Origin: Escherichia coli
Lineage (GTDB): Bacteria; Pseudomonadota; Gammaproteobacteria; Enterobacterales; Enterobacteriaceae
Direction: 5' to 3' (one strand)
DNA length: 23,185 nucleotides
NCBI GenBank assembly: GCA_022664555.1
Contig: GCA_022664555.1_4839.1
Positions 3,872 through 21,722 of this stretch are shown here, in pieces (within the stretch, counting starts at the first letter, position 1; each line of letters opens with the position of its first letter). The notes under the pieces were generated by a model. The model searched no databases. It was given only the letters and a program-made list of their open reading frames with translations, and was not told where the DNA came from. The position numbers were made by a program, and so were the translations under genes.

Positions 3872-3917
3872 TTGCAAAAAAGAAAGGGGAACGGGCTAAT
3901 AATAACCCATTCCCCTT
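3872..3917 (-). terminator. intrinsic terminator, probably bidirectional
   Basis: GGGGAACGGG...CCCATTCCCC stem (3886-3895 / 3906-3915, one mismatch). Minus strand has TTTCTTTTTT after it; plus strand has TTTATTGAAGG. Confidence 0.6.
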
Positions 3918-3943
3918 TATTGAAGGAAGCAACCCCAGTCAGA

Positions 3944-8957: not shown

Positions 8958-8986
8958 TTCAATCACCTGTTTGTCAAAGGGTTAAC

Positions 8987-9019
8987 AGGGGGAATTATAT
9001 CCCCCTTTGGTTTATTGAA
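8987..9019. terminator. GC hairpin between the DNA polymerase stop and the next gene (terminator or attenuator)
   Basis: AGGGGGA / TCCCCCT stem (8987-8993 / 9000-9006), followed on the plus strand by TTGGTTTATTGAA. The minus-strand U-tract is poor. Confidence 0.4.
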
Positions 9020-12019
9020 TCAACCTTTCTTCTTTTGCATCATGGCAAGAAGGTTCACACGGCGCTTGTGTGACCAGCCGACCACGTCGAGGATAGACTG
9101 AATCGGATCAATGAAGGACTTCTCAAAGGCCGCCTGATAATCCACCCATTTGCCCAGACCAAGCTCCTCGGGGAAGAACTCAGGATATGCAAAGTAATTC
9201 TGGCCGAATGGGTTGCCCGGCTTCAACAACACCATCTGTACCTTATCACCCGACTCGATCATCGGTAGACCCAGATCTTCGTTCTTCTCAACCAGACGGT
9301 TGTAACCCACACAAGCCTTTGCAGCAAAATGAGCACCAGAGATGAACGATCCGTCAGCAGCCACACACTTCTCTATGTCGGACACGCCTGACGCCTTGGC
9401 GATATCGTCTACAGAGAGTTTCATGTACTCCTCTTTGTACTGGGAGATGAGCGTCTGTACTTCCTCTTCGGTGCCGAGTAGGATCTTCTCATAGCACTTG
9501 ACAAGACGCTCACGACACCATTCCGGCGTGGTGGACTTGCGGGCTTCCAGACCTTTGAACTTGATCTTCGGCTTCTCGTACTTGATACCCTCACTGTCGT
9601 ACACGGCCATGGCATACATCTTCTTGGCTCGCCAGACAGCGGCTGACGCAATGACCTCACGCTCCCACACCATGCGCTGTTCAAATCCGTTCATGGTGTT
9701 ACACAGAAGCTGTGCCCACTCATTGGTCTTCGGCTGGTAGTTGTCTTTGATCCATTGGTCGATATTATCAACCATAGCATGATGGTCAGTAACATCAGGC
9801 CACAACTGCTTGACAAGACGCTCAATGCAGATGTAGTTGGAGTCGGTATCCCCTGCGATGACGAAGTCCTGGCCTGTTGTACCACACAGCTTGTTCAGAT
9901 AATCATCGGTGTAACGCTTGTTCCACTTGTTGATCAGCTGACCGGATGTGGTGATGGCTTCGGCAATGTTGAGGTTGAAGTACTCTTTGAACCAGACGTT
10001 TGAGATCGCGCCATAACCTGCGTTCATCAAGATCTTCAGACCTTGCTGTAGGGTATCTTGAGCGACGCCCAGGTCTTCCCACTTCTTCATCACTTCGGTC
10101 AGGGCATCAAGATCAATGTTCTTGTGCTCTTCATACCACTCTGGGTCATAATAGCGAGACTTCATGGCAGACTCAAGATGGAAGTCACCCTTCGACATCT
10201 CTTTACACCAGCCAGCCCACTGCTCATACTTCAGACCCTTAGCTTTCTCTACTTTACGGTCGCTGTAGATACCACGCATGATTTCAGACAGGAACGACAT
10301 CTTCTCGTTGCTGAAGAATTGAACGTTCGGCGTGAACGACACGTTGTAACGGCGCAGGGTTTCAAAGTGGAACTCACCCAGGGCAACCAACTCATCAACA
10401 ACCTGCAGGCGTTCGTCAACCGCACGCAACAGCTTGTCGTGAAGGGCTTTCATCAACCGACGTTTGTGCATCGGCGTTGCCATGTTATTCATCTGAGCAG
10501 CCAGCTCTTCACACATAGCCTCAATGATCTCGCGGCGCTGGTGTTTGTCGCCAACGATAGTCTCTGGACCGAGGTTGTACTGCTGAATGATGTGAGGATA
10601 CAGGGAGTTCAAATCTTCCGAGAAGACCCAGAAGTAGATTCCTGGTGTCACATCCATGACGTATGCACCCTCAAAGTCGGTCGGACCATCGTATACACGC
10701 TGGATCTTAGGCACTACCCCCTTCTCGTACAGGCGATAATAGCACATCGCCAGCCACGGAGCCACAGTGCCCAGACCGTCTTCATAGTTGGACTTGGTGC
10801 GGTACGCAAGGACGAACATCAGCTGGAGCAGACGCAGCTTATGTTCAAGTCGCCATACCAGCTTAACGTCTTTGATACCATATCGGGTGTGTTTGCAGTA
10901 GTCGTTGAAGTACAGATCAAAGAGCGACTTGCTCTCACTGTAGTCCATCTTCTTCTCACCCAGCTCACAATACGCAATCCAGTCAAGAGAGTAGCGTTCA
11001 CGGGTGGTGTACGTGTGTTTCTTGTAGATCTGCATATAATCGAGCATAGGACAGCCCACGAACTGATACGTCGTGATATCGCCCTTCTTATCGCGAATGA
11101 TACGCTTCTTAATGATACCCCAAGGACTCAGACGCGACGTTTCAGCCTCACCCAGAACCTGATTCATGCGCTCAACAAGATAAGGGCTATCAAACGTCTC
11201 AATGTTCCAGCCAGTCCATCCGTCGAACTGACGCTCCGACCAGAAGTCTAGGAACGAGCGCAGCAGATCTTGTTCGGTGGTGAACTCCTGATAAACAACC
11301 TCAAGGCCGCCGATCTCTTTGTCTTCGGTGTCGTATGCGAATTTGTTACGATCTTTGGCACAGGGCATACCCCAGACCATGAACTTATTGGTCGCCATGT
11401 CCTGAAGCTGGATCAGGGTAATGGGGAACGCCGCATTCATGTCTTGGGTGATCTTACCGTTGCTGTCAATGATAGGGAACTTATCAGTGACGTTGTTGCT
11501 GATAAAGGAACTGGGAAAGTGCTCACGGACAAAATCATGGTTGGCCAGAACTTGTTTATGGAAGCGGCGAATGCGCGCCTCATTTCCTTTGAACGTCTGC
11601 TGCTCAATGGTTGGGTGAGGGAATGGACCTTTGGTCATCTTTCCATCTTTCCACCCGGCGGAGAACACTTCGATATCGAGGTTAGCAATATGGATGTTGG
11701 AATAATCCGGCTCAATCTTTCCGGGAAAGCTATGGGCAATGAACTGGTATGCATAATCGGTCTGCCCGTAAATGGCAGCACCCTGGACTTCCTTGTACTC
11801 TTCAAGATAGTTGTCAGCGTCACGCATGGAAGGGAACTGCTTGGCTACCAGGGGTTCATTGAGAAGGCCGACCTTTTCAACATTTGAATAGTCAGCCGTG
11901 GGTAAATAGAGAGTGGGTTCGAATTTCTTTTTCAACAGACGGCGATTACCCATGTCATCTGCAATTCGAATCAACAGGTCATTGCCCCTGCGGGCAACGT
12001 TCGTATAGAAAACGGTCAT
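9020..12019 (-). CDS. 43: family-B DNA polymerase, T4 gp43-like (999 aa)
   Basis: 3-kb track ORF. Exo I motif (ANLDIEVF), polymerase motif A (SEDLNSLYPHII) and motif C (IAGDTDSNYI). The N-terminus (FY...QFPSMRDA) resembles T4/RB69 gp43 as recalled. GGAG SD 6 nt before the ATG at 12019. Confidence 0.95.
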   Translation of the reverse strand: MTVFYTNVARRGNDLLIRIADDMGNRRLLKKKFEPTLYLPTADYSNVEKVGLLNEPLVAKQFPSMRDADNYLEEYKEVQGAAIYGQTDYAYQFIAHSFPGKIEPDYSNIHIANLDIEVFSAGWKDGKMTKGPFPHPTIEQQTFKGNEARIRRFHKQVLANHDFVREHFPSSFISNNVTDKFPIIDSNGKITQDMNAAFPITLIQLQDMATNKFMVWGMPCAKDRNKFAYDTEDKEIGGLEVVYQEFTTEQDLLRSFLDFWSERQFDGWTGWNIETFDSPYLVERMNQVLGEAETSRLSPWGIIKKRIIRDKKGDITTYQFVGCPMLDYMQIYKKHTYTTRERYSLDWIAYCELGEKKMDYSESKSLFDLYFNDYCKHTRYGIKDVKLVWRLEHKLRLLQLMFVLAYRTKSNYEDGLGTVAPWLAMCYYRLYEKGVVPKIQRVYDGPTDFEGAYVMDVTPGIYFWVFSEDLNSLYPHIIQQYNLGPETIVGDKHQRREIIEAMCEELAAQMNNMATPMHKRRLMKALHDKLLRAVDERLQVVDELVALGEFHFETLRRYNVSFTPNVQFFSNEKMSFLSEIMRGIYSDRKVEKAKGLKYEQWAGWCKEMSKGDFHLESAMKSRYYDPEWYEEHKNIDLDALTEVMKKWEDLGVAQDTLQQGLKILMNAGYGAISNVWFKEYFNLNIAEAITTSGQLINKWNKRYTDDYLNKLCGTTGQDFVIAGDTDSNYICIERLVKQLWPDVTDHHAMVDNIDQWIKDNYQPKTNEWAQLLCNTMNGFEQRMVWEREVIASAAVWRAKKMYAMAVYDSEGIKYEKPKIKFKGLEARKSTTPEWCRERLVKCYEKILLGTEEEVQTLISQYKEEYMKLSVDDIAKASGVSDIEKCVAADGSFISGAHFAAKACVGYNRLVEKNEDLGLPMIESGDKVQMVLLKPGNPFGQNYFAYPEFFPEELGLGKWVDYQAAFEKSFIDPIQSILDVVGWSHKRRVNLLAMMQKKKG

Positions 12020-15485: not shown

Positions 15486-16142
15486 TTATTTCTTGAATAA
15501 ACGAAGGAACTTCATCATGTTTTCCATGAAAGTCGGCTTCTTGACCTTTTGTTTTACCGGAGCGCCCTGATCATTCAGAACACGACTGACCGGAGGAGTA
15601 GGTGGTGTCGGCGCTTTCGTTTCACAGGCCGGAACGATGTTCACGTCATGATGAGAAGACTCAGATGTAGTGTTAACAACATTGTTCTCCTGGACGACAG
15701 GCTTGACGAGATTCTTTTCGTACTCACGCGCCATGGCCTGATACATCAGATTCAAATCCACCAGATCAACAGACTTGACCTTGCGACGACGCCAATTGGC
15801 GCTTTCTTCGCCATAGAAATCATATCCGTTTCTGATCAGCCAGTGTACGGCTTGTTCAAAAGAACCGAAGACCATAAGCGGAGCGCCCTGGCCTTTCTCA
15901 GATTGTTCCAGGCTACTATAACCCATCAATACAACCTGGCCTTTGATACTCAAATCAAACGTCATACCAAGGTTCGGGATGTTTTTATCGCGGCGGAAGA
16001 ACCCGCCATCACGGTAGACGTAAACAGGCGAAAGGAACTCATTCAGAGTACGCTTGACACCCTTGTATTGGAAGAGTCTGACAATTGGAGGGGTGTCATG
16101 GGAAATCACTTCGTTCAATTCCCAGATAGAAACATTACGCAT
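15486..16142 (-). CDS. hypothetical protein (218 aa)
   Basis: Track ORF; ATG at 16142 with GAGGAT SD 6 nt upstream. Proline-rich linker (KAPTPPTPPV) and basic C-terminus. Confidence 0.6.
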   Translation of the reverse strand: MRNVSIWELNEVISHDTPPIVRLFQYKGVKRTLNEFLSPVYVYRDGGFFRRDKNIPNLGMTFDLSIKGQVVLMGYSSLEQSEKGQGAPLMVFGSFEQAVHWLIRNGYDFYGEESANWRRRKVKSVDLVDLNLMYQAMAREYEKNLVKPVVQENNVVNTTSESSHHDVNIVPACETKAPTPPTPPVSRVLNDQGAPVKQKVKKPTFMENMMKFLRLFKK

Positions 16143-16166
16143 TGGTGTATCCTCAAATCTATGATA

Positions 16167-16195
16167 GGGGGTTAACGGTTAAATTTTAAACCCCC
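16167..16195. other. GC-clamped hairpin in the 5' leader of CDS 15486..16142
   Basis: GGGGGTT...AACCCCC 7-bp stem with a 15-nt AT-rich loop, followed on the plus strand by TTTGTAT. Confidence 0.35.
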
Positions 16196-16261
16196 TTTGT
16201 ATCATTGAACAAACTACGATAAAGGAGGACATGCTTGGGTCGATAAGAAGATAATAAGACA

Positions 16262-16295
16262 GGGATAAAAAGAAAGCCGGATAGGATATCCGGCT
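16262..16295 (-). terminator. intrinsic terminator at the downstream (minus-strand) end of the tRNA region
   Basis: AGCCGGATA-GGA-TATCCGGCT perfect 9-bp stem (16275-16295) followed on the minus strand by TTCTTTTTATCCC (plus 16262-16274). Confidence 0.7.
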
Positions 16296-16352
16296 ATACC
16301 ACATCGATGGGATGGGTTGAAAGACTACACGCTTGCACTGGTACTACCCTAT

Positions 16353-16380
16353 GGGAGAGCGCGTCAGGAGTCGAACCTGA
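16353..16380 (-). pseudogene. tRNA 3'-end fragment (T-arm plus acceptor 3' strand), no anticodon arm found
   Basis: Minus strand reads TCAGG-TTCGACT-CCTGA-CGCGCTC-T-CCC: a perfect 5-bp T-stem with canonical T-loop, then a 7-nt acceptor-like strand. I could not find a matching 5' acceptor, D-arm or anticodon arm within tRNA distance. Confidence 0.35.
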
Positions 16381-16512
16381 AGTCGTCGACGTAGAGAAAG
16401 CTATTTGCATTTCACTATCCTCGCCGCGATTTTCTTAACTTCCTAAACACCCCGATTACGAGAGAGTCGACATGCACATCTTCTAACTCTTCAGGAAGTC
16501 ACGCCCGTAATT

Positions 16513-16601
16513 TGGCGGAAGGTGAAGGATTCGAACCTTCGGGGGCTAAAAGCCCCACTCGATTAGCAATCGAGTCCCTTAAACCTCTCGGGCAACCTTC
16601 C
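16513..16601 (-). tRNA. tRNA-Ser (anticodon GCU), class II with long variable arm, CCA encoded
   Basis: Reverse complement folds by hand into a cloverleaf: acceptor GGAAGGT/ACCTTCC (7 bp perfect), anticodon stem CTCGA/TCGAG with loop TTGCTAA, variable arm GGGGC-TTTTA-GCCCC, T-arm GAAGG-TTCGAAT-CCTTC, discriminator G, CCA. Confidence 0.9.
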
Positions 16602-16821
16602 AATTTGGACGGGCTTCGCACCCGATTGAGCATTTGATCTACCGTAGCCCAACTCCCCGCGCTTCTCAGCGCCGATTGGTTAACTGGCGACCAGTGCCTT
16701 CTGGTTCGATCTCCTAGAAGTTTACATGCTTTGCTGCCGACCATTTCTGGTAGTTAGGGCATCGTTTCCGATGTGGAGTCACCCCATTTTATACACAGCT
16801 GGCTGCAATGCTTACTGTGTT

Positions 16822-16898
16822 TGGTGATCCTGGTTGGATTTGAACCAACGACCAATGAATTATGAGTTCACTGCTCTAACCGACTGAGCTACAGGACC
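16822..16898 (-). tRNA. tRNA with CAU anticodon (elongator Met, or Ile2 if lysidine-modified), CCA encoded
   Basis: Reverse complement: acceptor GGTCCTG/CAGGATC, D-arm GCTC-AGTCGGTTA-GAGC, anticodon stem GTGAA/TTCAT with loop CTCATAA, T-arm GTTGG-TTCAAAT-CCAAC, discriminator A, CCA. G1-C72 pair argues against an initiator. Confidence 0.88.
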
Positions 16899-17802
16899 AA
16901 ATTATTGTGTGACCAACCAAGGACTGTCAACCCTTTATCCCGTTTGTGCATGATCAGTTCATGCAGGCCTCTTTGTGCTGCCTCACGGCATGCGCTTCTG
17001 TTGGTCATTGGCTTACACTGTGGCCTCACAACAGGCGTTTATTTTTCCAGGGCTTTCCACTTGCAAGTCTTGACCATACAGGGATACGGGCTTACAAGAT
17101 CGGGTTGGACACAACTTTGATGGCTCTGGTATTAAAGATCCCGCGTCACCCATAGACATGGTTTATAAATCCAGAGCCATCAAAGTTGCAACCAATGTCG
17201 CAACTCGCAGCTTCCATGCAGAAGAAACTTGTCCTCTAACGCTCGGACCAAACGAGGCTGGCTGGTTGATTCAGAGCCGCTGGTTGCTCCAGCAAGCATG
17301 GGTTGATAGCCCGGCAACATAGAATCACCCAAAGTTGAAGAACACTCAGTGGTACAAGCCAGGGATACCAATTTCAGGTCCTTTGCGAGTTCTTTAAATG
17401 CTCTTCATTTTGTGAACTTGAGAATACTACGCCTGTCTCGGGTTTCCCCTTAGTTCGGCCTCCCAGTCCTCGCCGCGCCGGGTAGCTAACCCTGATGGCT
17501 CGTCTGCTACTGAGTTCTTCTTGGTGCCCACCAGTGTCCGGAATGTGTAGGCATCGCAATCTGCAAGGCATGGTCTATTTCACCCAATGCTCTCTCAAGT
17601 TCACAAATCGAAGTGCCCTGACTCAACAGTATAGCCCAATATGCTGTTATCGTCCACCGGATTGGCCACCCACTTCGTAGATCAACCTTTGGGTTTAAGA
17701 TAAATTGTCAAGGCACTTCGATTTGTGTGCCCTTCACCTGCCAGGGATCAGGGCTGATGGCAAGACTTCGCTCACATCTTTCAAGATACTCGTGAGAATA
17801 TC

Positions 17803-17830
17803 CTCAAAGATGTGGGGCCGTTTTTAGGAG
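17803..17830 (-). pseudogene. tRNA 3'-end fragment (T-arm + acceptor 3' strand + CCA), no anticodon arm found
   Basis: Minus strand reads TTGGG-TTCGACT-CCTAA-AAACGGC-C-CCA, the same layout as the two intact tRNAs. No complementary 5' acceptor (GCCGTTT-like) or anticodon stem-loop could be found 60-100 nt upstream. Confidence 0.35.
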
Positions 17831-18803
17831 TCGAACCCAAATGCTTGGCCAGCGCTGACCTTACATCCCATCTGACTTAGGCAACCCACTCCCAGCCCCA
17901 CAACACTCACTACGGTTAAGATTATTGCGTATGTTGTATGGTCTTGCTGGTCACAACTGAAAGGGCACTTAACAGAAGATAGGTCTGATTGCCTCGGATG
18001 ATTTCTCAGTAGCCTAAATGCCCTTACATGTTGTGTGCCCATTATTAATCACAGCGGGCCACTGCGCCGAATTTGGTGATGAGGAATCGGAAGACCTCAC
18101 TGACTTATAGGCTGTTACGCCGCCATCAGAACTTCGGAATCATTAGCAGTTATTTGCTTGGTCAGTTTCTAAAAACCCGCAAAGTCACGCACAACGAAAA
18201 CGAAAACCTGTTTGAGCACAAGACACCATGTCCTGGGTTCACATCGAAGTGTTTGTCTAATGCCCAAACAGCTTTTCGCTTCAGTGGGTTAACTATACTT
18301 TGTAACCCGTTATTGATAAAACCTTTTATTTTTGTTGGCGAGGGTATCACCATCGATTTACCGGAACTTACGCATCCGGCCTCGCCTGTTGGTGATCCTT
18401 CGAATCCGGGAAGATCAGTAGGAACTATGAATCAAGTTAATTCAACCAACAGGAACCTTGTTGCCCTTTGACGCAACATTATGAACCCTCTATGGAAGAC
18501 TCATAATGTTGTGGCGTGATGGAGATTAGCGCCCCCGACCTCCCCTTATACGTTGGTGTCGACTTGCCAACAGGGTGCTCTCTGATTCTGAGCTAATCAC
18601 GCTACAACAGGGAGTTTCGTTCTCCGACGGTCAGTGCGTCCACCGACACCAGCGAGGTTGATATTACGCCTCTATTCGTCACGGTGCCCTGAGACTGGGC
18701 TTTCCTGGTTTCGGGTTCCAGCCCTACTCCCACCGCGCTATTCGCCTCGTGTTTAATACTTTACTACAGCCCAGCTAATTTGAAAAGTCCTCTCCTCTTT
18801 GAG

Positions 18804-18950
18804 CTACACTGCCCACAGCAGTGCGGGCGAACCTTCGCACAAAACCGGATGCGCCGAAGTGGGCGACTGTTTACCGGACTGATCGGGTAGACCCAGGAGA
18901 GTAAAGGTAATCCCGATCAGGAGGATGAGGAGTAACATCATGTAAAACAT
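18804..18950 (-). CDS. small membrane protein (48 aa)
   Basis: Hand-translated ORF below the track cutoff: MFYMMLLLILLIGITFTLLGLPDQSGKQSPTSAHPVLCEGSPALLWAV. ATG at 18950-18948 with a strong GGAAGGGAGGGAA SD 4 nt upstream; TAG at 18806-18804. One N-terminal TM helix. Confidence 0.45.
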   Translation of the reverse strand: MFYMMLLLILLIGITFTLLGLPDQSGKQSPTSAHPVLCEGSPALLWAV

Positions 18951-19007
18951 AGTGTTCCCTCCCTTCCATGCAACTAACTTTACTGCAATTATTTATTGAA
19001 TAAAGCG

Positions 19008-19577
19008 TTATTTTAACACTTCTAACTTCACAATACGACGCAGAAGGTAAACATATTCGCCAGCAGCTTCATGCGTCATATAATGGGTAGAAGGTGTGGA
19101 ATGAGTGTTCTGGGTTTCTTTTAATCCAACACGTTCTGCCCAACCATTAATAGAGTTCCCATAGAAACCGATAATCGCACCAAAATAAATGCGCCCGCTT
19201 TCTGGCTCTAAAACATAGTTGACAGTGAAGCAAATGTCAGAACGAATAGACTCCAGTTTCATACCAACACGACCTTCAGAGAATTCGTTACGAACATATA
19301 AATGACGGAAGCGATCGCGCCGTGCTTGTGATGATTCTTCCAATTCTTGTCGAAGTGAAGAAGTTATGTCAATATTAAATGAAAATGTTGGATTTCGTAA
19401 ATCAGAACGAGCCAACTCTAAGGCAGATTCAATAACGCGGCGGAAATTGATACTTTTACCTGTCAGGCGTTTCACTTCATCGGTGATTGTTTCAAAAGGG
19501 ATTTTCGTGGCGCGTTCCCCTTCGTATTTTGCTAACAAAGGAATAATGTGTTTCATGATTGCTGTGTTAATGTGCAT
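19008..19577 (-). CDS. hypothetical protein in an AT-rich islet (189 aa)
   Basis: Track ORF; ATG at 19577 with GAGG SD about 7 nt upstream. Visibly lower GC and different codon choice from the surrounding genes. No motif I can assign (no GIY-YIG, HNH, Walker or HAD signature). Confidence 0.6.
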   Translation of the reverse strand: MHINTAIMKHIIPLLAKYEGERATKIPFETITDEVKRLTGKSINFRRVIESALELARSDLRNPTFSFNIDITSSLRQELEESSQARRDRFRHLYVRNEFSEGRVGMKLESIRSDICFTVNYVLEPESGRIYFGAIIGFYGNSINGWAERVGLKETQNTHSTPSTHYMTHEAAGEYVYLLRRIVKLEVLK

Positions 19578-19774
19578 TCCGGAGCCTCACTGGATTGATT
19601 AAATGTCTCCGTTATTATATTGGGAGTATGTTTATTGAATATAAACACAGGAATGGCCAATAAAACAATGACAGTGATTATTAATAGGTAAAAACTACTT
19701 TTCTACAACATCAAGAAACTGTATCCTAACGCAGTGCCCTTCGAGTTGTGAGTGTCAACGAACAACGAGAAGCA

Positions 19775-19852
19775 GCCTCCATGGCTGTGGAATGGTGCTG
19801 CCCGCACAGGGCGGTGTTACGAGCGAGGGCGTCAGCCCCCTCGCGAGTTATA
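19775..19852 (+). other. cluster of three GC-rich hairpins upstream of the baseplate operon
   Basis: CAGCC-TCCAT-GGCTG; CTGCCC-GCACA-GGGCGG (one G-T pair); GCGAGGG-CGTCAGCC-CCCTCGC. All lie within about 80 nt in a non-coding stretch; none has a U-tract. Confidence 0.35.
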
Positions 19853-19895
19853 TTCGAATAAATTAAACGCGCGCGAGCCGTTTTGATTCCCGTTG

Positions 19896-19903
19896 GCTAA
19901 ATA
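19896..19903 (+). promoter_or_regulatory. late-promoter-like CTAAATAT upstream of the gp6-like gene
   Basis: CTAAATAT lies 41 nt upstream of the ATG at 19944 and resembles the T4 late promoter core TATAAATA. The same CTAAATA core precedes CDS 13618..14076 on the minus strand. Confidence 0.3.
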
Positions 19904-19943
19904 TCTTCAACACCATATTCAAACTCAGGTGATGGAGATTATC

Positions 19944-21722
19944 ATGGCCACGCAAACAGTCCCTTCACTCGATGTCAGGGCTTTCGAGTATCTTATCAAG
20001 AAGCGCATGAAAGCTGATCCAACTTTCAAGGATTATGACTTTGAAGGTTCTGGTCTCAGTGCAATCGTGCGTATCTTGGCCTCGGATGCCAACTCTATCG
20101 GGTTCATGCAGAACATGCTGAATGGCGAAAGCCATCTTCACTCTGCTCAACAGCGTTCTAATGTCGGTCTTGCGGCCGGGTTCTTGTCGTACACCCCTCA
20201 TAACTACCAGGCGGCGTACCTGTACGCAAACGTCACAGTCACTCCATATGACGCCAGCACGGCTCCGGACACGATTATAATGGATCGCCGCGCGATGTTC
20301 ATTGGGGCGAAGGATGGCAAATCCTACAACTTCACGGTTGAACAACCTGTGAGTGCCTCTCTTGTAGACGGCTCTTACAAGTTCGAGAACATCAAACTCA
20401 TACAGGGTAACTGGCTGTACAAGTCCTATGATGTGGAAGGCAGCGCGATCTCTACCTATGTGATCCCATCTTCTTCCGTGGACATCGACCATATGGTGGT
20501 GCAGGTGCAGGAATCTGAGACATCTGACGTGCGGTCTACCTTCTCACGATACGTAAGCCCGTTCGATTTGAGCCAGTATGCGCAACTTTACTTCGTTGAG
20601 CTGGGGTTGGACGGGATGTACACGTTCGAATTCGGTGATGGGTATATCTGTAAGCGAGTAGAAGACGGGAACGTCGTGTACCTCCAGTATCTGGAGACAG
20701 CTGGTGCAGACGGCAATGACATCACTGCCTTGTCCTCCGCGTCTTCCATCGGGGGATTCAACCTTGTAGAAGTTGAGCTGGTCTCAGAACGTTCTTCCTG
20801 TGGTGCGGACCCAGAGAGCATTGAGGACATCAAGCGCCTTGCTCCGCTGGCTTATCAGGCTGAGGGTGCGGCAGTGGCCGAAGTCGATTATGCTGTGTTG
20901 ACCGAGCGTCTGTTCTCCAACGTCTCCCGCGCCAAAGCATATGGCGGCGACACGCTCTCTCCGCCCGACTCCGGATACGTTTACATTGCTGTGATACCTT
21001 CTGTTGGTGAGGCGCTCTCGGACGCTGAGAAGGCAGATATCGTGGCGACGTTGGACAAGTATAATGTGGGCACGATCACACCCAAGATTGTCGACGCTGA
21101 ACTGACTTATGTTGATGTCACCACCCGCGTGTTCTGGGATCCGACTTCCACGACCTACACCGAAGAGCAGTTGAAGACAGTCGTGAAGAACGGTGTTGTC
21201 AACTGGGGCTTGGGGAACCTAGAAGGATTCGACGAACTGTTCGATAAAGAGCAGTTACAGTCGGACATCACAGACATGGACAGATCGATAGTGTCAAACA
21301 TCACTTCTGTGAAGTATAAGCGCCATTTCAAGCCAGACTATGGGGTACTGGACAGCTTCACGTTCGATTATGGGCGCTCGATTGCATCTGGTTCTGTGCG
21401 TATCAGTGGGTTTAAGCCGCTTCCGGCCGAGGTCGAATTCACTTACTACATACGCGACGTCAGTGGTGTCCTGAATATGTACAAGGTGAGTACAACAGAC
21501 ACGACCAAGGAATATCTGGTACAAGCTGTTGGAACGGTTGAATATGTGAATGGCGTTGTTGAACTCCAGCGCATCACAGTATCCAACAACAACACCCAGG
21601 GAGAGAAAATAATCGAGTCTCCAGACGGTCTTGACCAGAACATTCAGGCCACACAGAATCAGGTGCTCCGCATTGGTGCTGTAACTGTGGAGCCGGAGGT
21701 GCGTTATGTCCAAAGATCTTAA
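19944..21722 (+). CDS. 6: baseplate wedge protein, T4 gp6-like / P2 gpJ-like (592 aa)
   Basis: Track ORF 19893..21722 (TTG start) trimmed to the ATG at 19944 with GGAGA SD 5 nt upstream. The N-terminal region DPTFKDYDFEGSGLSAIVRILASDANSIGFMQNM resembles T4 gp6 (EFLDYDFEGSRLNVLCDLLAYNTLYIQQFGN) as recalled. Confidence 0.8.
   Translation: MATQTVPSLDVRAFEYLIKKRMKADPTFKDYDFEGSGLSAIVRILASDANSIGFMQNMLNGESHLHSAQQRSNVGLAAGFLSYTPHNYQAAYLYANVTVTPYDASTAPDTIIMDRRAMFIGAKDGKSYNFTVEQPVSASLVDGSYKFENIKLIQGNWLYKSYDVEGSAISTYVIPSSSVDIDHMVVQVQESETSDVRSTFSRYVSPFDLSQYAQLYFVELGLDGMYTFEFGDGYICKRVEDGNVVYLQYLETAGADGNDITALSSASSIGGFNLVEVELVSERSSCGADPESIEDIKRLAPLAYQAEGAAVAEVDYAVLTERLFSNVSRAKAYGGDTLSPPDSGYVYIAVIPSVGEALSDAEKADIVATLDKYNVGTITPKIVDAELTYVDVTTRVFWDPTSTTYTEEQLKTVVKNGVVNWGLGNLEGFDELFDKEQLQSDITDMDRSIVSNITSVKYKRHFKPDYGVLDSFTFDYGRSIASGSVRISGFKPLPAEVEFTYYIRDVSGVLNMYKVSTTDTTKEYLVQAVGTVEYVNGVVELQRITVSNNNTQGEKIIESPDGLDQNIQATQNQVLRIGAVTVEPEVRYVQRS

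Follow-up and report, generated by a model that had tools for sequence, protein, structure and literature searches.

Why should one gene of a phage genome be so much richer in AT than the genes around it, and why should it lie between two nearly identical palindromes? Both questions are raised by positions 18804–19650 of a 23,185-nucleotide stretch of DNA from an Escherichia coli assembly (GCA_022664555.1, contig GCA_022664555.1_4839.1), the whole of which is referred to here as the window. This islet holds two open reading frames (ORFs), one for a 189-residue protein and one for a 48-residue hydrophobic peptide. A first-pass annotation, made without database searches, took it for horizontally acquired accessory cargo and pointed to PeSLs (promoter-early stem-loops), the promoter and stem-loop cassettes of T4-type phages (Arbiol et al., 2010, PMC2839356; Comeau et al., 2014, PMC4122927), as possible carriers. 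Comparison with related phages leads to a different account: the AT-rich patch is very probably the allelic replacement of a core gene from a lower-GC, Kuttervirus-type relative, and the flanking palindromes are copies of a putative promoter box.

The window comes from an Aglimvirinae (Agtrevirus-like) phage of the Ackermannviridae. Region 18400–20200 matches 273 phage records, of which all the well-matching ones are Ackermannviridae, with Enterobacter phage fGh-Ecl02 the closest at 98.1% identity. The backbone is called Agtrevirus-like because the protein of gp6, the baseplate wedge gene, is 96% identical to that of the Agtrevirus phage Gloob (78% to that of the Salmonella phage Mutine, a Kuttervirus) and because the near relative AV101 is classed in the Aglimvirinae. 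Its GC content is 0.49 and its GC at third codon positions (GC3) about 0.57–0.60. In the annotations of fGh-Ecl02 and Mutine both ORFs are hypothetical and stand between the tRNA cluster and the divergent gp6; the same placement, between a tRNA region and the structural operon, had been recognised in the window and holds there, with tRNA genes up to 16898 and gp6 from 19944.

The compositional anomaly is borne out. The 189-residue ORF has a GC of 0.404 and a GC3 of 0.337, against a GC of 0.492 for the window and a GC3 of 0.53–0.66 for neighbouring ORFs, and its ortholog in fGh-Ecl02 has the second-lowest GC3 among 171 ORFs (z = −3.5). The version of the gene that the window carries, the Kuttervirus-type allele A, has a GC3 of 0.353 in Mutine and is ordinary there (z = −1.1, rank 8 of 40). 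Paired GC3 values for the gene and for gp6 are 0.56 and 0.61 in Gloob, 0.48 and 0.48 in Taipeivirus, 0.42 and 0.42 in aagejoakim, 0.55 and 0.66 in Miltonvirus (phage 3M), and 0.42 and 0.39 in a Vibrio phage.

Discordance between this allele and its backbone is evident along the DNA. Against Mutine, the window is 92–99% identical from 18400 to about 20000 and about 70% identical beyond, in gp6; against Gloob, it is 61–77% identical over 19000–19700 and 92–100% identical beyond 19900. At sites that distinguish Mutine from Gloob, the window is of Kuttervirus type almost throughout 18991–19952 and of Agtrevirus type almost throughout from 19973, which places the right-hand switch between 19952 and 19973, within codons 3–10 of gp6; the left end of the tract runs into a flank common to both genera. 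Over this ~1 kb the identity to Kuttervirus is 93–99%, at all codon positions and in non-coding DNA alike. Synonymous divergence (dS) between the window and Mutine is 0.117 in the 189-residue ORF, whereas the synonymous sites of gp6 are saturated (proportion of synonymous differences, pS, 0.77); between the window and Gloob, dS in gp6 is 0.155. The proteins agree: the 189-residue protein and the gp6 protein are 96% and 78% identical between the window and Mutine, and 69% and 96% identical between the window and Gloob. Horizontal acquisition, proposed at the outset from composition alone, therefore stands, and the GC of the gene is low in this window probably because the allele was imported, in a recent event, from a Kuttervirus-type phage. 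The AT-richness would then be historical and not functional, that of a Kuttervirus (Cvivirinae, GC about 0.44) allele set in a backbone of GC 0.49.

A smaller unit, consisting of the putative promoter P1, the 5' untranslated region and the ORF, is a recurrent exchange point that has been swapped independently in other lineages. Two Kuttervirus phages, Mutine and aagejoakim, have gp6 proteins that are 100% identical and family proteins that are 65% identical; their flanking kilobases match completely, and identity falls to 50–80% inside −100 to +570 relative to the ATG. Differences between Mutine and genome L017 span the same interval. Between Gloob and genome L026 (family protein 80%, gp6 protein 100%) the differences are confined to +50 to +350, or codons ~17–117. 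Measured against the motif copies described below, the left boundary of the cassette lies within ~12 nt of the second putative promoter, P2, in two events and the third event is intragenic; right breakpoints lie beyond P1 and the right palindrome by ~35 nt within Kuttervirus and by ~310 nt in this window. Three islands conserved across genera hold the crossovers: 18400–19007 (92–98% identical between subfamilies), 19682–19800 and 19893–19975, the last being the block of the gp6 late promoter and 5' end. We propose that homologous recombination replaced the backbone's own allele and its upstream regulatory DNA (~18991–19952) with the Kuttervirus allele, and that crossovers would have occurred in near-identical islands, on the left in the region of the 48-residue ORF and its RNA and on the right at the late promoter and 5' end of gp6. 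Homologous recombination in such conserved anchors is sufficient to explain the pattern of swaps. The islet is an exchangeable unit in so far as P1 and the ORF move as a cassette, by replacement and not by insertion. The suggestion that the palindromes bracket that unit fits the left one, which lies within ~12 nt of its edge; the right one lies inside the tract.

The exchanged gene is a core, family-restricted gene of the Ackermannviridae and not accessory cargo. The 189-residue protein was found by tblastn in 345 phage records, and all Ackermannviridae records carry the gene in synteny. Counts of the gene and of gp6 are equal or nearly so for each host: 162 and 162 for Salmonella, 19 and 19 for Dickeya, 10 and 10 for Serratia, 45 and 44 for Klebsiella, and 30 and 29 for Escherichia. 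The order gp6, family gene, tRNA region is shared by Agtrevirus, the Limestonevirus-like phiDP23.1, Taipeivirus, Kuttervirus, Miltonvirus and Vibrio phage D506, and is kept even though the Vibrio phage homologue is just 27% identical. No empty site lacking the gene was found among about 276 enterobacterial Ackermannviridae records, and no relative of the protein turned up in the 185,579 genomes of bacteria and archaea that were scanned; an exhaustive profile search of 1.84 billion proteins gave 14 representatives. Because it is universal and syntenic in the records of the family, the gene is neither cargo nor an indel, and where an insertion or deletion bounded by the palindromes had been anticipated, comparison with related phages reveals the replacement of one allele by another. 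Syntenic conservation together with genome-typical GC, which the first-pass annotation itself regarded as incompatible with its proposal, is what is seen in other genera and in the donor lineage. As a separate observation, the Dickeya phage phiDP23.1 (record L007) has a ~280-nt insertion upstream of the family gene, before a conserved block, and lacks the 48-residue ORF downstream, so in the Limestonevirus-like genus the locus varies by indels too.

The two AT palindromes are present as described. The left one, TTTATTGAATAAA at 18992–19004, has 6-nt arms around a 1-nt centre and begins 3 nt past the stop codon of the 189-residue ORF; the right one, GTTTATTGAATATAAAC at 19630–19646, has 6-nt arms around a 5-nt centre and lies 53–69 nt upstream of the ATG. 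They have in common the exact 11-mer TTTATTGAATA. Allowing up to one mismatch, the window holds 8 copies of this 11-mer where 0.33 would be expected, and none of 100 shuffles reaches 8. Relatives keep just the asymmetric core TTCAATA(A) and not the palindromic symmetry. Each palindrome overlaps the TTCAATAA box of a promoter-like motif, P1 upstream of the 189-residue ORF and P2 in the 57-nt gap between the two ORFs (Table 1). Every allele and genus retains the P1 box and its −10 element but varies in the 12-nt spacer, and the P2 box, with a −10-like element reading TAAAGT, TATAGT or TAAATT, is conserved from Kuttervirus to Miltonvirus. A third candidate, P3, is a weaker match than either. With one mismatch allowed per element, 150 kb of fGh-Ecl02 contains the motif 22 times where 1.6 would be expected; of these copies, 18 are intergenic, mostly 29–93 nt upstream of a co-oriented non-structural gene or tRNA, and the genes behind them include dNMP-kinase, ligase-like and deoxyribonucleotidase-like genes as well as tRNAs. 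The first 50 kb of Mutine holds 10 copies, against 1.5 expected, at orthologous sites. In the window all seven clear copies are on the minus, transcribed strand, and the motif is present in records L003–L005 and L031 as well. Judged by conservation, number and placement, the palindromes are best read as two copies of a family-wide promoter box and not as the ends of a mobile element, and promoter activity of TTCAATAA-N12-TATAAT appears likely. A search for literature on the TTCAATAA motif or on Ackermannviridae transcriptomes found nothing relevant, which is not proof of novelty. The palindromes were also considered as terminators; a terminator scan finds none there, and their folding is weak.

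Table 1. Coordinates of features in and around the AT-rich islet (positions in the window).
Feature	Position	Strand	Basis or remark
189-residue CDS, PHROG 3788, ATG start, A (Kuttervirus-type) allele	19008..19577	-	ORF call and PHROG match
Recombinant tract, presumed imported	18991..19952	.	Mutine-like, not Gloob-like, at all but a few informative sites
Minimal exchangeable cassette (P1, 5' untranslated region, ORF)	19010..19680	.	Independent swap within Kuttervirus
P1, putative promoter, TTCAATAA-N12-TATAAT, upstream of 189-residue ORF	19614..19639	-	Box overlaps right palindrome
P2, putative promoter, TTCAATAA-N10-TAAAGT, 57-nt gap between ORFs	18977..19000	-	Box overlaps left palindrome
P3, candidate, TTCAAATT-N13-TAAAGT, just 3' of 48-residue ORF, facing tRNA-like region	18758..18784	-	Direct repeat family D1; conserved in alignment
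Copies of TTCAATAA(A)-N12-TATAAT/TATTAT	1061-1086, 3899-3924, 8994-9019, 16183-16209, 18292-18317, 18977-19000, 19614-19639	-	
48-residue ORF, PHROG 8415, N-terminal hydrophobic helix	18804..18950	-	PHROG match, E = 7e-33
tRNA-Ser and tRNA-Met	16513-16898	-	
gp6 (baseplate wedge)	ATG at 19944	+	
CTAAATA late-promoter-like element upstream of gp6	19897..19903	+	In block conserved across all genera; block is the right-hand crossover zone

Several points weigh against an import from Kuttervirus flanked by promoter boxes. The left breakpoint is not exactly placeable: 18400–18990 is 92–98% identical in both genera with site types mixed, and the apparent left edge is set by one Agtrevirus-type site at 18985. 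Transfer from Kuttervirus to this lineage is the direction we infer, because the GC of the tract fits Kuttervirus and because allele A varies more among Kuttervirus members (dS up to 0.73) than it does from Kuttervirus to this clade; the argument for direction consists of this fit and this deeper diversity. Within Kuttervirus itself, where the mean GC3 is 0.43, allele A at 0.35 leans slightly towards AT, and hence may possibly stem from an older, still lower-GC lineage. P2 has a spacer of 10 nt and a weak −10 element, and the function, class and strength of the motif as a promoter are read from sequence only. The mild AT-richness of allele A in its presumed home would also suit the idea that low GC is intrinsic to the gene, owing to selection on expression or RNA structure and not to transfer. 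That idea is refuted by the sister Agtrevirus orthologs, which have a GC3 of 0.53–0.56 beside gp6 genes 96–100% identical, and by the contrast in dS and the tract's 93–99% identity to Kuttervirus, which extends to every codon position and to non-coding DNA, and we give it almost no credence.

The original proposal of accessory cargo, developed here into a model in which a mobile PeSL-type cassette carried it in and recombination between the two TTTATTGAATA repeats inserted it and could excise it, draws on real features: the ORF is bracketed by an exact 11-nt direct repeat with copies 639 nt apart, no more than ~12 nt separate the left copy from the cassette's edge on that side, and other motif copies in the window are true composites of promoter and G/C stem-loop like those of T4-type phages. 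We nevertheless find it very hard to sustain, given a universal, syntenic gene for which no empty site is seen, an event in which ortholog replaced ortholog with no gain, a right repeat copy that lies inside the exchanged DNA, near-identical flanks long enough for ordinary homologous recombination to suffice, and only weak folding at P1 and P2 (−9.2 and −8.0 kcal/mol; z = −2.7 and −1.4) with no U-run. A homing endonuclease or other selfish gene is ruled out as the identity of the 189-residue gene by its universality, by purifying selection and by the lack of a catalytic motif. A homing endonuclease acting from nearby is another matter, and would refine the allelic replacement favoured here without excluding it: a break in the tRNA or non-coding RNA region during co-infection would have been repaired with co-conversion of the cassette. 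T4 SegB and the preferential inheritance of the T4 tRNA region offer a precedent. HNH genes lie in the same non-coding stretch of Mutine (record L002, 1970–2425) and of Klebsiella phage 0507-KN2-1 (record L008, 5126–5686), and 18100–18990 is a fine mosaic of Kuttervirus- and Agtrevirus-type sites that is unusually alike across subfamilies. For T4-like phages, moreover, homing endonucleases have been held responsible for moving neighbouring DNA horizontally (Comeau et al., 2014, PMC4122927). The window, however, has no endonuclease ORF between 16900 and 18800, no cleavage site is known, and the edges of the swap within Kuttervirus are clean (at −100 and at the stop codon) with flanks 100% identical, so a nearby break is not needed. 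Such help from nearby endonucleases in driving the exchange is conceivable, and we rate it as improbable though well worth keeping in view; HNH genes may also account for the fine mosaic in the tRNA and non-coding stretch and for its homogenisation across genera.

The replaced gene encodes a soluble, basic protein (pI 9.0) that matches PHROG 3788, a family without assigned function, over its full length (E = 1e-100). Its ratio of non-synonymous to synonymous divergence (dN/dS) is 0.03–0.24, so the protein is real and under purifying selection. An AlphaFold2 model has a mean confidence (pLDDT) of 90.8 and a predicted TM-score (pTM) of 0.88, with a mainly helical N-terminal part and a beta-rich C-terminal part. 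Across the wider family R103, Y139, W146, T164 and H165 are invariant and S66, N68, N144, P162 and S163 nearly so. Sensitive profile searches and structure prediction had been suggested as routes to a function, and they yield a confident model with no relative outside the family by sequence or by fold. The Pfam scan returned Radical_SAM alone, at 14 bits under a 29.5-bit cut-off; sequence searches of NCBIfam, PADLOC and the PDB, run from the single protein as well as from profiles, brought up no consistent match, and profiles against the PDB reached antibody chains at E >= 0.3; Foldseek against the PDB gave TM-scores <= 0.22, and against BFVD only family members. Among named candidates, ADP-ribosyltransferase, 2H phosphoesterase and Tpt1 were rejected on mismatched motif order and spacing with no fold match, and a PD-(D/E)xK nuclease fold on the absence of an alpha/beta core with conserved D...(D/E)xK residues. 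Readers of modified bases of the PUA-like, EVE, YTH or ASCH kind, marked by a pseudo-barrel fold with an aromatic cage, were also among the candidates considered. In phage LIMEstone1 the ORF next to gp6 (ORF163), which we infer to be the family gene, is absent from the 39-protein virion proteome, and this hints weakly at a non-virion protein. It is a tentative guess that the protein is indeed non-virion and that the conserved Arg/Tyr/Asn/Trp/Ser-Thr-His site in its C-terminal part binds nucleic acid or a nucleotide ligand.

The 48-residue ORF that follows on the same strand does have the hydrophobic character and the strong ribosome-binding site ascribed to it. It matches PHROG 8415, also without assigned function, over its full length, its hydrophobic stretch scores 2.5 on the Kyte-Doolittle scale over 19 residues, and the Shine-Dalgarno sequence GGAGGG lies at 18957–18962, 6 nt before the ATG. 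Although their nucleotides differ, Kuttervirus, Agtrevirus, Taipeivirus (57–62 residues) and Miltonvirus (65 residues) all have this Shine-Dalgarno sequence, the ATG, a gap of 57–59 nt and the hydrophobic N-terminus, and the frame and the residues SGK.xPxxAHxVLxxGS are shared between the window and Taipeivirus. The same DNA shows signs of RNA structure. Conserved hairpins at 18806–18824 and 18881–18918 overlap the ORF, compensatory base-pair changes occur in helices 2, 4 and 7, and across 18330–19000 the RNA helices have 26 pairs changed on both sides, those two hairpins included, against 8.5 ± 1.9 in shuffles and 4–10 in slid controls. With a dN/dS of about 0.7 (127 non-synonymous changes over 107 sites and 63 synonymous over 37) and a dS of only 0.03–0.15 across subfamilies in which gp6 is saturated, the ORF could be regarded as a non-functional side effect of a conserved, folded RNA, which would serve as leader, terminator or processing signal and reach into the tRNA-like region. 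We think this doubtful: translation signals and the hydrophobic N-terminus are kept in four genera and the frame is kept to Taipeivirus, the RNA structure was tested on the same alignment that yielded it, and the high dN/dS is weak evidence because transmembrane peptides tolerate many substitutions. The ORF probably encodes a small single-helix membrane peptide, predicted to be translated, whose DNA also appears constrained as RNA.

Further structured elements were seen on both sides of the islet. At 18512–18604 on the minus strand lies a tRNA-like cloverleaf with a 7-bp acceptor stem, a GCUC/GAGC D stem and a T-like arm; in the place of the anticodon arm it has a 5-bp stem with a 10-nt loop, where a canonical tRNA has a 7-nt anticodon loop. 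Six of its pairs have compensatory changes, and its D-loop insert measures 44 nt in 0507-KN2-1 and about 22 nt in Serratia phage 3M. Neither ARAGORN nor the Rfam tRNA model detects it as a canonical tRNA at any threshold, and it is probably the 'degenerate tRNA' mentioned for CBA120. The ~1.9 kb 3' of the 48-residue ORF (16900–18800) has no convincing ORF and contains blocks 85–97% identical between subfamilies whose protein genes are ~70% identical; it may hold a series of structured RNAs derived from tRNAs. A permissive Rfam scan of 16100–20000 returned only the two tRNAs and chance matches (a 'mir-3119' hairpin and a 24-bit permuted tmRNA), the former falling at 17099–17204 on a long hairpin with near-perfect 17–20-bp arms (AACTTTGATGGCTCTGG...CCAGAGCCATCAAAGTT). 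In the divergent intergenic region, a ~110-nt element at ~19715–19830 is conserved in Kuttervirus, Agtrevirus, phiDP23.1 and Taipeivirus and is non-coding because it tolerates 1-nt indels. It shows compensatory changes (CCAU/AUGG to CCCU/AGGG and GCCC/GGGC to GCCU/AGGC), has a terminator-like hairpin at 19823–19844 on the plus strand and may be a leader or small RNA.

Taken together, the locus would mark the start of a leftward non-structural transcription region, standing back to back with the late baseplate operon, for which a late promoter upstream of gp6 was predicted in the AG3 paper (PMC3121705). On the minus strand the proposed order is P1, the 189-residue core gene, P2, the 48-residue peptide, candidate P3, the structured tRNA-like RNA and the tRNA genes, and the temporal class of the leftward promoters would be early or middle. 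The lesson of the islet is that a compositional anomaly in a phage can arise when an orthologous allele replaces that of a core gene, with no new cargo involved, and that recombination between subfamilies of the Ackermannviridae is channelled through short ultraconserved anchors. Since Salmonella, E. coli O157, Klebsiella and Dickeya are targets of biocontrol and therapy with phages of this family, loci that exchange freely are worth knowing. The finding about the islet is itself modest, and its by-products may matter more: a sequence-defined candidate for the early and middle promoters that Kutter et al. (2011, PMC3184105) could not identify, a universal protein with a confident model whose fold matches no solved or predicted viral structure outside the family, and a tRNA-like RNA with covariation that escapes standard tRNA and Rfam searches.

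Compared with known systems, the locus resembles T4-type PeSLs in that a short regulatory motif is repeated in intergenic DNA, between a stop codon and the Shine-Dalgarno sequence of the next gene, and is tied to genes swapped between close relatives. The likeness is closest elsewhere in the window. At 1045–1095, 3880–3930 and 8980–9025 on the minus strand, as in nt-1-type PeSLs, an AAAGGGG-loop-CCCCTTT stem-loop is placed around the −10 element (−17.5 to −26.5 kcal/mol, z = −2.9 to −6.7) and is followed by a U-run; these composites look like the PeSLs of T4-type phages, in a different phage family. The PeSL connection thus holds for other copies of the motif and not for P1 and P2, which form AT-rich hairpins without a strong G/C stem-loop. 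The upstream element of the motif is TTCAATAA, 12 nt from the −10, and not a sigma-70 −35 hexamer at N17: the hexamer at N16–18 matches TTGACA at only 1–3 of 6 positions, while the −10 of P1 is perfect (TATAAT). Unlike PeSL cargo, the flanked gene is a universal core gene and not an ORFan in a hyperplastic region; long homologous flanks explain its exchange, and one motif copy lies inside the exchanged tract. Of the marks of an accessory island, atypical composition and discordant phylogeny are found here, and presence/absence variation among relatives is not.

In architecture the motif is closer to the T4 middle promoter, whose MotA box, 12 ± 1 bp from the −10, stands in for a −35 element (Hinton, 2010, PMC2988021). 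P1 and most other copies likewise have a conserved box of 8–9 nt, 12 nt upstream of an excellent sigma-70 −10 element, and the motif precedes replication and nucleotide-metabolism genes and tRNAs; the box itself differs, being TTCAATAA and not (a/t)3TGCTTtA. Neither MotA nor AsiA is present in ViI-like phages according to Kutter et al. (2011, PMC3184105), who were unable to identify early and middle promoters in them. One could imagine that the TTCAATAA box is this missing promoter class, working through a MotA-like appropriation of sigma, that the 189-residue protein is its activator or a partner of the tRNA-like RNAs, and that swapping reflects selection on a surface that contacts the host, a chain of suppositions that we regard as a long shot.

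The exchange itself is most like the allelic replacements of mosaic phages, in which near-identity to a distant lineage appears sharply within a diverged backbone. It also resembles the tailspikes of the Ackermannviridae, with which alone the gene shares its compositional mismatch in the same genome: the sole ORFs of fGh-Ecl02 with comparably low GC3 are two tailspike genes (0.32 and 0.34; record L003, 33030–38399), consistent with their import from lower-GC relatives in the same manner as the 189-residue gene. Tailspike modules in this family are exchanged by homologous allelic replacement. Here, unlike in tailspike swaps, the unit is a small non-structural gene with its putative promoter, and the anchors are an ultraconserved RNA-coding flank on one side and a late-promoter block on the other.

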